Of a stretch of DNA of 64,000 nt, positions 50,082 through 53,000 are shown piece by piece. The stretch comes from Yuukianura sp. NJ FZ-2021 (lineage: Eukaryota). A program made the translations under genes and the position numbers. Numbering within the stretch: the first letter of the stretch is position 1; the number at the start of each line of letters is the position of its first letter. The stretch covers positions 3,410,001-3,474,000 of the forward strand of contig CM102284.1 in NCBI GenBank assembly GCA_046563655.1, in the 5' to 3' direction. The notes beneath the pieces are model-generated. The model was not told where the DNA came from and ran no database searches. It saw only the letters and a list, made by a program, of their open reading frames with translations.

Positions 50082-53000
50082 TTAGTCCGTTCCAGCGTCC
50101 AATTCTTCCAACCGCTCCCAACTCAATTCTCGAACTTGTGATGTCGTGAGGGTCAGTTCAGCGTACCATTCCAATATTTGTTTAAGTTCAACCGCCATTA
50201 GAGAGTCGATACCAAGTTCACCCAGAGTGACACTTTTGTTGGCAATGCTGGCAGTACTCTTCAGTCCAAGGATCTTGGCAACTGACAGCAACATGGACTG
50301 TTTTTCCGCTCCAGTCGTCTTGCCAGTTGCTTCTGGAAGAACAGTCGAAGCCACTACGGTCATTTCTGTCTTCCTCAGGAAAATGTCAAGGACGTCGATG
50401 CAGGAGGACAGGCGTTGTGGAATTGTTCCAGCGATAACGACGTCGTTTCCTCCCGTGTGGTCGTAAAGTAGTCCCACGTCACCGATGGCGCCAAACTGAA
50501 TAGCCAATCCGGAAAGGCCGTCGGATTTCCTTTGTTCGCAGATCCTTTCCATGAAGGAGTTGGCCAAACCGTAGTTGGTTTGTCCTGCGTTCCCGCGTCC
50601 AGCAACAACGCTGGAGAATACGACAAAGTAGTCTAGATTTGGACAGAGTTTGCGTGTAGCGACATCTAGGTTCAGAGTTCCGTCGATTTTTGGTTTTGTG
50701 ACAAGGTCGAACGTAGCAACGGTTTGGTTTTCAATCAAACTGTCTTTCAATACCTAAGAAAAGTTAAAAAAAATAGCAAAATTTTGGAGAAATAAATGCA
50801 AATGTACATAATTAGAAATTTTTGCTTGCATCATTTACCATTGCCAAATTGAAAACTCCGCCCAGTGGTCCCATTTTGATGGCATCTTCGATAAGTTTTG
50901 TTGCTCCGGTCAGGGTGGTAACATCAACATTGGACACAACGACGTGGACTCCCTGTTCTGTCCACCGTCGAATGGCCAAAGCTTGGTAACCATTTTTAAC
51001 CGATGATCGAGATACCAAAACCAACTTGCGCACTCCGCGCACAATCAGCCAATAGGCAAGCTCCATTCCAAAACCACCCAGTCCGCCAACAATAACAAAC
51101 GTTTTTGTAGATTTGAAAAATGTGCGCAGACGCGCCTCAACCATCGTTGGATTTTGTGCAGTTGAAAGCTCATCTTTGATTCTCATTACGACTTTGCCCA
51201 TGTGTTTGCCATTAGCCATGAAACGAAAGGCTTCTTCAATCTGTTCCGTGGTGAAGATCGTTCGTGGAAGTGGTTTAACAATACCGGTTTGAATTCCACG
51301 CGAAACTAATTCAACAACTTCGCGCTTCTCAGTCGACGACTTTTCGAAGAGTGAGTCGAGCAGAATGCCATGGAAGGTGACATTTTTGAGGAAGATGGCC
51401 ATGCCCAAGGAATTGTTTTTGGAGAGATCATATTTTCCAATTTCTAAAAACCTCCCGCCTTCTGCCAAGCATCGAACGGATGCTTGCAGTTTTTCTTCTG
51501 AAAGGGAATTCAGAACGAGGTCAACTCCACGACCCTCTGTGTGGTGGATGACATGTTGCTCAAAAGTTAGGTCACGTGAGTTCGCAAAGTTGTCTTCCTT
51601 GAGCTTTAAAAAGTCAAAAATATTGGGTTAGCAATTAATTTCTCAAAAAATTGGAAACACTTTCTTTTCGAAAAGCAACTTTTACTTGTGGAAATTGTTT
51701 TTTCAAAAATTCTTTCTTCTCAGTCGAACCAACAGTGGTGAAAACGTTACAGTTCATGCCGAGTGCAATTGCAATTGCGGCTTGTCCAACACCGCCAGAT
51801 CCAGAATGAATCAGAACAGTTTCTCCTTCGCGCATGCGTCCACGAACAATCAGGGAATAGTAGGCCTAGTACATAAAAATTCAACATTTTAGTATAACAA
51901 CAAATTTTGACTTTCCTAAAGAAAACTTTAAAATAAAGTTTCCTTTTGAGACCTACTGTAGAATATGCTACGGGAACTGTTGCAGCCTCTTCCATTGTCC
52001 AATTCTTTGGAACGTTCCACATAAAAAGTGGATCGGCGGTCACATGTGTAGCCAGTCCCTTAGCTTCTACCATTCCCATCACCCTTGACCCTGCCTTGTT
52101 CTTTCCAACAAATTCCAAACCAAGGATGCATTCCTGAGTAGCCAACTTTCCTGGAAGGGCTTCTGGTGGCAGTTTTCCAGTCGCAAGCATGATGTCACGG
52201 AAGTTCAGTGGGGCGTAGTAGACTTCGCAAACTTCGGTTCCAGCCGCTTCATGCTCGGAGAAGGCAGGAGCTTCAACGAATTTCAAACTTGACAAATCTC
52301 CGCGCGTTTCGACGTTGATGTATGCGTAAGGCGTTGTCTGGACAGACAGGTTGTCGTGGTTCAAAGCAAAGTGGCGGTAGGATCCGGTGACTCCCCTGCT
52401 ATTGATGACGTTCATGATCATGTCAGATTGTAGAATGGTCTGGGTCATTGGATCTTCTGTGTCGGTGAGGTCAATGACCTTGTGGGTTGAAAATACACAT
52501 CGAACCTTGTTTCCACCGGGCTCCCGACGGAGACAGTTGACCAGACCAATGATACCAGTGTGGTGGTTTTGGAAGGATGTGACGTAGATCACAGGATGGT
52601 CTTTGCTTTCAGCTGATTTGGCCATGGCGACCTTGAGGGGTTCGAGCCACTGGAAGCTTTTTTCGTCTACGTTGATCACGATGGGTGCAGCGATGCTTTT
52701 TGTAGAATTCTATGCAATATAAAACAAGTCCGAACAAAATTCGTTCAAAATTTTTAAGGAAGCAAAATAAATGTTGAACAATATTTGTGGTTTTTGAAAT
52801 TGTGAACTTTTATAACTTTTTAAATCTTCGATTCTAAAATTACCTTGTGAAAAAAGTAGAAATAAGTGTGCATGGTTTTTCGTGTGGATACGAGATGTAA
52901 GTTTGGAATTTGGGTATCGAAGGTTATTGACTCTTTGGTTTTGACCAAGAGGAAGCCGCCATCTTTGAGTGACTGTTCGGTTGCCGCAATTGTGTCAACG

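Follow-up and report, generated by a model that had tools for sequence, protein, structure and literature searches.

A fully reducing animal fatty acid synthase-like gene that ends at its acyl carrier protein, probably a thioesterase-less lineage-specific paralogue

In this study, we analyzed a 64-kb stretch of genomic DNA (contig CM102284.1 of assembly GCA_046563655.1, positions 3,410,001 to 3,474,000; hereafter the window, in which all positions are counted from its first letter), which harbors a fatty acid synthase (FAS)-like gene on the minus strand. This gene very probably codes for an entire type I FAS module of the animal kind, fully reducing, that has lost its thioesterase (TE); it is best explained as a lineage-specific paralogue which originated from a duplicated TE-bearing FAS, diverged fast and then came under purifying selection. 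A sequence-only reading of the same DNA had proposed a FAS-like megasynthase that ends at the acyl carrier protein (ACP) without a TE, and this was borne out by the domain architecture, a true stop codon and the failure to detect TE coding sequence anywhere in the window. The suggestion of a specialised FAS paralogue is likewise supported, since the window holds no TE, the stop codon is conserved under selection and the gene is sister to TE-bearing FAS.

The gene extends from an ATG at 58789 to a TAA stop codon at 50084-50082 and comprises 17 exons with 2019 codons plus the stop. Exons 1-6 are located at 58789-58651, 57628-57473, 57379-57149, 57080-56937, 56859-56614 and 56552-56131, exons 7-12 at 56072-55941, 55859-55635, 55364-54513, 54450-54225, 54127-53696 and 53384-53179, and exons 13-17 at 53122-52844, 52709-51957, 51865-51686, 51603-50839 and 50753-50085. 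Junctions were placed at GT-AG sites that keep the reading frame, guided by tblastn of long homologues and by the match to homologues. Three junctions are uncertain (56131 to 56072 or 56027; 53696 to 53384 or 53406; 52844 or 52892 to 52709), and the C-terminus is unaffected by them. The assembled 2019-codon model contains zero internal stops, and the window is free of N over its whole length.

Pfam scans of the exons returned the families of animal FAS in their order: ketoacyl-synt, Ketoacyl-synt_C, KAsynt_C_assoc, Acyl_transf_1, PKS_DH_N, FAS_pseudo-KR, ADH_zinc_N(_2), KR and PP-binding. All domains are on the minus strand. The ketoacyl synthase (KS, 56131..58789) is encoded by exons 1-6 and was assigned by Pfam and motif alignment, with Cys166, His298 and His338 in the numbering of the model. 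It is followed by the malonyl/acetyl transferase (MAT, 54513..55859, exons 8-9; GHSAGE with Ser585, His686 and Lys610; Acyl_transf_1, E 2.1e-56) and the dehydratase (DH, 53696..54450, exons 10-11; His874 and Asp1024; PKS_DH_N, E 3.8e-8). A non-catalytic interdomain, the remnant of a pseudo-methyltransferase (pseudoME), and a pseudo-ketoreductase (pseudoKR) occupy 52362..53384 (FAS_pseudo-KR, E 1.2e-25). The enoyl reductase (ER, 51187..52361) retains its NADPH-binding motif (ADH_zinc_N_2, E 8e-19, and ADH_zinc_N). The ketoreductase (KR, 50481..51102) crosses the last intron at 50838-50754 and carries GGLGGFG as well as the Lys, Ser, Tyr and Asn residues (Pfam KR, E 1.8e-18 and 6.6e-22 on the two exons, the latter for its C-terminal half in residues 1-91 of the last exon). 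Thus, the canonical FAS order KS-MAT-DH-(pseudoME)-pseudoKR-ER-KR-ACP is present on one polypeptide, and Bombus FAS1 is collinear with it over 2086 positions.

The last-exon frame (50082-50753, 223 amino acids) consists of the second half of the KR and then a complete ACP, and ends with ...ELDAGTD before the TAA. The ACP and C-terminus were assigned by Pfam and alignment to 50085..50330, with the phosphopantetheine-bearing Ser1982 in GIDSL, and the protein ends 37 residues past this serine. When the last exon was scanned alone, the ACP reached E 7.2e-4 with PP-binding (20.2 bits, cut-off 20.8) and E 4.2e-4 with ACP_SdgA_C. In a column-by-column comparison with the parrot, Bombus, Ixodes, crinoid, centipede and mite FAS, all residues in the columns that we take to be catalytic are kept: KS Cys/His/His, MAT Ser/His, DH His/Asp, those of the ER, KR Lys/Ser/Tyr/Asn and the ACP Ser. 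Hence the sequence-only reading was right about the KS, DH, ER and KR motifs, about a last exon that passes from KR to ACP and stops at ...ELDAGTD, and about 50082-50330 as the span of the ACP. The region between DH and pseudoKR is 169 amino acids long (model residues 1066-1235, about 52709-53696). In parrot, crinoid, tick, spider mite and centipede FAS it measures 290-321 amino acids, and we considered a short pseudo-methyltransferase region as a special feature of the gene. This was rejected, because other hexapod FAS are equally short (164-192 amino acids in those compared, apart from one gappy Nilaparvata model with 50); the millipede model has 185.

A C-terminal TE (PF00975), as in canonical FAS, is absent. 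Canonical FAS proteins have 294-319 extra residues beyond the ACP end, which the window gene lacks. With tblastn, 78 TE tails from database matches gave a best E of 0.095 against the 64-kb window, with 203 weak high-scoring segment pairs (HSPs) that were scattered. A TE profile built from these tails and run against the 2751 six-frame open reading frames (ORFs) of at least 15 amino acids gave a best E of 2.8. As a control, three springtail-type TE tails outside the training set of the profile were searched in the same database; the whole tails were found at E ~1e-92 to 1e-94 and, cut into 60-residue pieces, 15/15 were recovered at E <= 0.036 and 12/15 at E <= 8.2e-9. The three springtail-type tails were also used as tblastn queries; their best matches reached E 0.87 in the window and E 0.24 in the orthologous contig described below, and neither is downstream of the stop. 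One match just past the stop (50013-49939; three related queries, E 0.48-0.75) was considered as a TE relic and rejected as a chance hit, because its frame differs from that of the stop, it covers 25 amino acids only, 203 similar HSPs are scattered over the window, and both the profile and the springtail TE tails missed it.

Downstream of the stop lies a spacer of 594 nt on the minus strand (49488..50081), comprising the 3' untranslated region of the FAS-like gene and the promoter region of CSN6, without an open frame or TE relic. Its three-frame translation shows many stops in every frame. No AATAAA was found in the spacer; a TATAAA and an AGTAAA are located 36 and 399 nt, respectively, past the stop. 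The first exons of CSN6/COPS6 (48260..49487, minus strand; ATG at 49487-49485) bound the 3' end of the synthase and are not part of it. CSN6 was identified by PDB matches, five of five being CSN6 chains, and by Pfam MitMem_reg (E 5.6e-17) with a weak JAB match. The distance of about 600 bp from the stop to the COPS6 start given earlier was therefore accurate.

An independent genomic contig of 4258 bp (L001), retrieved in a metagenome scan, carries the same four C-terminal exons of an orthologue; its exon ends were set by homology, at GT donors. Identity to the window gene is 80% in the last exon and 81% across the C-terminal 758-761 aligned columns. The L001 last exon has 223 codons, ends with ...LDAGKK and is terminated by a TAA at the homologous codon. 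No TE was detected in the 1.7 kb past the L001 stop. Here, positions 3151-3849 (minus) contain a 232-residue open frame opposite to the FAS-like gene, which matches no Pfam family and is not CSN6. Synteny at the 3' end thus differs between the window and L001, and the stop codon is conserved. An AATAAA was observed about 60 nt past the L001 stop (about 2625). Over 764 aligned codons of the two sequences, the proportion of nonsynonymous differences (pN) is 0.123 and that of synonymous differences (pS) 0.761, i.e., a pN/pS of about 0.16; the corresponding values for the final 75 codons, which cover the ACP and tail, are 0.103 and 0.819. Since synonymous sites are saturated, dN/dS would be well below this ratio, which indicates that the FAS-like gene is under purifying selection. 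The same stop in a second species together with purifying selection speaks against both an assembly break and a pseudogene, two of the outcomes that the sequence-only reading had named as fatal to it: no N is present and L001 stops at the same codon, and instead of a dN/dS near 1 constraint was found, including the ACP and tail.

To place the gene, three trees were calculated: a FastTree of 109 rows over the C-terminal 790 residues, an IQ-TREE quick analysis of 37 of these, and an IQ-TREE quick analysis of 27 rows at full length minus the TE. The last exon is at most 58% identical to any database protein; its closest partial match, P0001, holds the start of a TE and is 87% identical to P0432 of Orchesella dallaii (2427 amino acids, with PF00975), which with P0001, P0434 and P0435 represents the canonical springtail-type FAS. 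The window gene and L001 group with a support of 100 in all three trees, and the sister group of this TE-less pair is in each case the springtail-type FAS with a TE (support 99 with 109 rows, 95 with 37 rows and 99 with 27 rows). The combined springtail clade joins insect FAS with support of 96 and 97 in the C-terminal trees, a join that the full-length tree leaves unresolved. The gene is positioned inside the animal FAS clade, beside insect FAS, the outgroup being vertebrate and crinoid FAS. In the full-length tree, the stem of the TE-less pair has a length of 0.64 vs 0.16 for the canonical springtail-type group. Such a long stem beside a TE-bearing sister group is what leads us to a diverged duplicate that lost its TE.

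Several substitutions are found near the active sites and on the ACP. In the KS (exons at 57149-57379 and 56614-56859), the active-site cysteine stands in D-A-F-C, vs D-[TS]-[AG]-C in 23/23 other aligned rows, and the motif E-P-H-G-T-G-T includes a Pro that is present in 0/24 other aligned rows. In the MAT (exon 54513-55364), Lys610 occupies the position of the carboxylate-binding Arg, which is Arg in 21/24 other rows. In both TE-less orthologues (window 50085-50160, L001 2480-2562), the serine is followed by an ACP helix with the sequence ...KQILEWYA[ED]L..., vs ...KQTLER[DN][YH]D... in most canonical FAS compared. This changed helix is a conserved alteration on what would be the docking surface for partner domains. 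Together, the KS, MAT and ACP changes would fit an altered substrate or partner and are proof of nothing.

The sequence-only reading had left the choice between a FAS paralogue and an animal FAS-like polyketide synthase (AFPK). The former part stands; the latter, in the sense of a mollusc-type AFPK, fits less well. The ER-KR exon matches the PDB chains of human FAS, Drosophila FAS1 and pig FAS with 320, 317 and 315 bits, vs 203 with EcPKS1, 175 with EcPKS2 and 97.5 with mycocerosic acid synthase. A KS exon scores 122-124 bits with human and mouse FAS and 114 with pig FAS, vs 98 with EcPKS2 and 95.5 with EcPKS1. Bombus FAS1 and a parrot FASN are 46.6% and 46.5% identical to the whole model, whereas the models of Chamberlinius, Choristoneura and Allacma, which are TE-less or (P0117) incomplete at the C-terminus, reach only 38-43%. 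From these bit scores and overall identities, the predicted protein is a derived canonical-type FAS outside the mollusc AFPK clades. A functional AFPK would make a non-fatty-acid, branched or partly reduced polyketide-like lipid, its altered KS and MAT pockets picking other primers or extenders. This reading could draw on the unique substitutions that flank the KS Cys and His and replace the MAT Arg, on the long stem after duplication and on published work: mollusc AFPKs of clades 1-3 typically end without a TE (PMC10764717), EcPKS2, described with an inactive ER, ends in an ACP, which its authors offer as the explanation for its pyrone product (PMC11831141), and Lin et al. (2024) describe arthropod AFPKs as grading continuously into FAS (PMC10764717). 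We nevertheless regard an AFPK as unlikely. With DH, ER and KR motifs intact, polyketide-type processing is not apparent and a pyrone or polyene as made by EcPKS1/2 is not expected, the bit scores are far nearer to FAS, the gene falls within the hexapod FAS radiation, and its DH-to-pseudoKR region shares the short length of the other hexapod FAS compared.

Less probable still, indeed very improbable, is that the gene represents the only, primary FAS of an animal from a lineage that lacks a TE in cis and releases its bulk fatty acids otherwise. An identity of about 46.5% to vertebrate and insect FAS, the usual level among those, would suit such a role. However, the TE-bearing springtail-type FAS form a tight, slowly evolving group, and the TE-less pair lies outside it on a fourfold longer stem, as expected for a diverged duplicate and not for a species-tree orthologue; with 81% identity to each other, the window gene and L001 are a lineage separate from the canonical group. 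Finally, an artefact or dying gene (assembly break, mis-joined contig, or recent truncation leading to a pseudogene) might be read into the ACP score just below the cut-off and the spacer without a canonical AATAAA, but is hardly credible given a sequence without N and open for 2019 codons over 17 exons with every catalytic motif kept, an identical stop position beside a different downstream neighbor in a second species, the low pN/pS at saturated synonymous sites with a constrained ACP and tail, and the many TE-less arthropod proteins that end at nearly the same point.

This last observation comes from a survey of 253 proteins obtained in two last-exon searches, of which we kept the 67 whose matched region is preceded by 1000 residues or more; shorter proteins and those with an HSP falling short of the ACP were left out. 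Among the long matches, 42 have a TE-sized extension, 19 end at most 40 residues from the window C-terminus and six are ambiguous. Of the 19 TE-less matches, 13 end at -4 to +10 residues of the window C-terminus. Named TE-less models include those of Choristoneura, Ooceraea, Lasius, Camponotus, Helicoverpa, Ignelater, Pyrocoelia, Rhipicephalus, Amblyomma, Halotydeus, Chamberlinius and Allacma, and also of aphids; some of these database entries may be gene models that were cut short. At least 12 changes of the TE-less label are required on the 109-row tree. We also considered a single ancient TE-less clade including the window gene, and rejected it: TE-less forms are scattered, and the TE-less model of the springtail Allacma is only 38.7% identical. 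Because of this scatter and low identity, TE loss within Collembola appears to be independent. The window gene shares with TE-less arthropod FAS paralogues the FAS domain set, the end at the ACP and the lack of PF00975, while a canonical FAS in its lineage is known from other springtails. It is thus a further, independently arisen TE-less arthropod FAS paralogue, of a kind that is already known.

The aphid sequences deserve a separate remark. Canonical-type FAS models of Cinara and Melanaphis (P0532 and P0535, with 2121 and 2060 amino acids, noted alongside P0524 and P0536) end 18-26 residues past the ACP and lack PF00975. These TE-less models nest among TE-bearing hemipteran FAS, and may reflect one more independent loss of the TE or else incomplete gene models.

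How could such a synthase work? We propose that a canonical TE-bearing springtail FAS was duplicated, and that one copy lost its TE, diverged fast and was then conserved. Its intact KS, MAT, DH, ER and KR would run full reductive cycles and thereby load Ser1982 of the ACP with an acyl chain that is saturated and possibly branched. Unreduced keto groups are needed for the pyrone escape of EcPKS1/2, and with reducing domains intact this release is not expected; release would then have to occur in trans. Potentially, the chain could be taken over by a free hydrolase or thioesterase, an acyltransferase or a reductase, or be transferred back to CoA by the enzyme's own MAT. Chain termination mediated by the MAT is known for mammalian FAS in the ruminant mammary gland. 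The product would probably feed a specialised lipid pool rather than bulk palmitate; cuticle, pheromone or defence chemistry had been suggested in the sequence-only reading as a possible role. It is tempting to speculate further that release by a TE in cis was replaced by another termination chemistry, for example with the Lys-bearing MAT transferring the chain to CoA or the changed ACP surface docking a trans-acting partner, with the KS pocket selecting an unusual primer or chain length and with a product destined for the unusual lipids of the collembolan cuticle or defence; in this specific form the proposal is tentative and we consider it doubtful.

Other genes in the window are MOB1 (plus strand), RBM22 (minus), a GT10 fucosyltransferase (plus), alpha-SNAP (minus) and a gene with a RUN domain and coiled coil (plus), with spans jointly listed as 29890-32396, 43028-43756, 46723-47430 and 61885-63400. 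They are of ordinary housekeeping type with short introns and give no sign of a lipid cluster. In addition, three multi-exon genes that are paralogues of each other are arranged in tandem on the minus strand (34607-40374), with ORF sets at about 34.6-35.7, 36.9-38.0 and 39.2-40.4 kb. The encoded proteins are hydrophobic, probably multi-pass membrane proteins, and match no Pfam family above threshold, the sole match being a weak Fuseless (E 0.0039, 17.1 bits, cut-off 25). An RBM22 exon is closest to soil sequences (88-90% identity); its best named matches are the springtails Orchesella dallaii and Folsomia candida, both with 84%, ahead of Limulus with 80%.

Several points weigh against the interpretation as a TE-less springtail paralogue and should be borne in mind. 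The host lineage is most likely a springtail (Collembola), but this assignment relies on the one conserved RBM22 exon and on tree position. That the same animal also possesses a canonical TE-bearing FAS or a stand-alone thioesterase is something we infer from other springtails, and the 3' end and splice pattern of the FAS-like gene were deduced from genomic sequence alone. The trees were built with quick methods (FastTree or IQ-TREE with LG+G4, and Shimodaira-Hasegawa-like support), and owing to the long stem and the deviant amino-acid composition of the window row, its exact position could be subject to a long-branch effect. L001 covers the C-terminal 771 residues, and the conservation seen in a second species applies to these, with the KS and MAT and their changes lying outside; the Lys-for-Arg exchange in the MAT is conservative and perhaps meaningless. 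A gene cluster with a release enzyme was also considered and rejected, as no hydrolase, acyltransferase or reductase candidate was found among the neighbors in the window.

TE-less enzymes have been described in other arthropods and in molluscs. In Spodoptera litura, SlFAS1 is reported to lack a thioesterase domain, and its knock-down lowered triglyceride and survival (PMC9409488). Expansions of "aberrant" insect FAS without some domains were reported by Finck et al. (2016; PMC5039406), and locust FAS5 is described as lacking KS and TE (PMC11855270). According to Lin et al. (2024), arthropod AFPKs mostly carry a TE, and the offloading mechanism is unknown for most TE-less mollusc enzymes (PMC10764717). 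Judged by titles and the openings of abstracts, the matches listed in a literature search on springtail or Collembola FAS and thioesterase included no TE-less springtail FAS. The general picture of arthropod lipid metabolism is unchanged by the window gene, as TE-less paralogues are both annotated and published in insects and frequent in the tick, mite and millipede models recovered here. However, chain release by TE-less animal FAS-like synthases is an open biochemical question, and here the gene offers a clean study case: it is near to canonical FAS, has all reducing domains, is conserved in two species or more and can be compared with a sister gene that bears a TE.

In comparison with known systems, the window gene shares the KS-to-ACP order and the catalytic motifs with canonical FAS (human and porcine FASN, Drosophila FASN1 and P0432) and differs from them by its missing TE, a fourfold longer stem, unique KS and MAT residues and an altered ACP helix. 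The mollusc enzymes EcPKS1 and EcPKS2 and AFPK clades 1-3 are likewise FAS-derived, iterative and terminated by an ACP without a TE. In EcPKS2, however, the ER is inactive and a pyrone is produced, whereas the window gene has intact ER motifs and is much more distant in bits from this enzyme than from FAS. In mycobacteria, mycocerosic acid synthase (MAS) is a fully reducing, iterative KS-AT-DH-ER-KR-ACP enzyme without a TE, from whose ACP a separate acyltransferase takes the product. MAS is bacterial and distant (97.5 bits on the ER-KR exon), and resembles the window gene in outline; a PapA5-like partner gene was not seen in the window. Insect and other arthropod TE-less paralogues such as SlFAS1 have the same KS-AT-DH-ER-KR-ACP set without PF00975 as the window gene, to which they are not orthologous.

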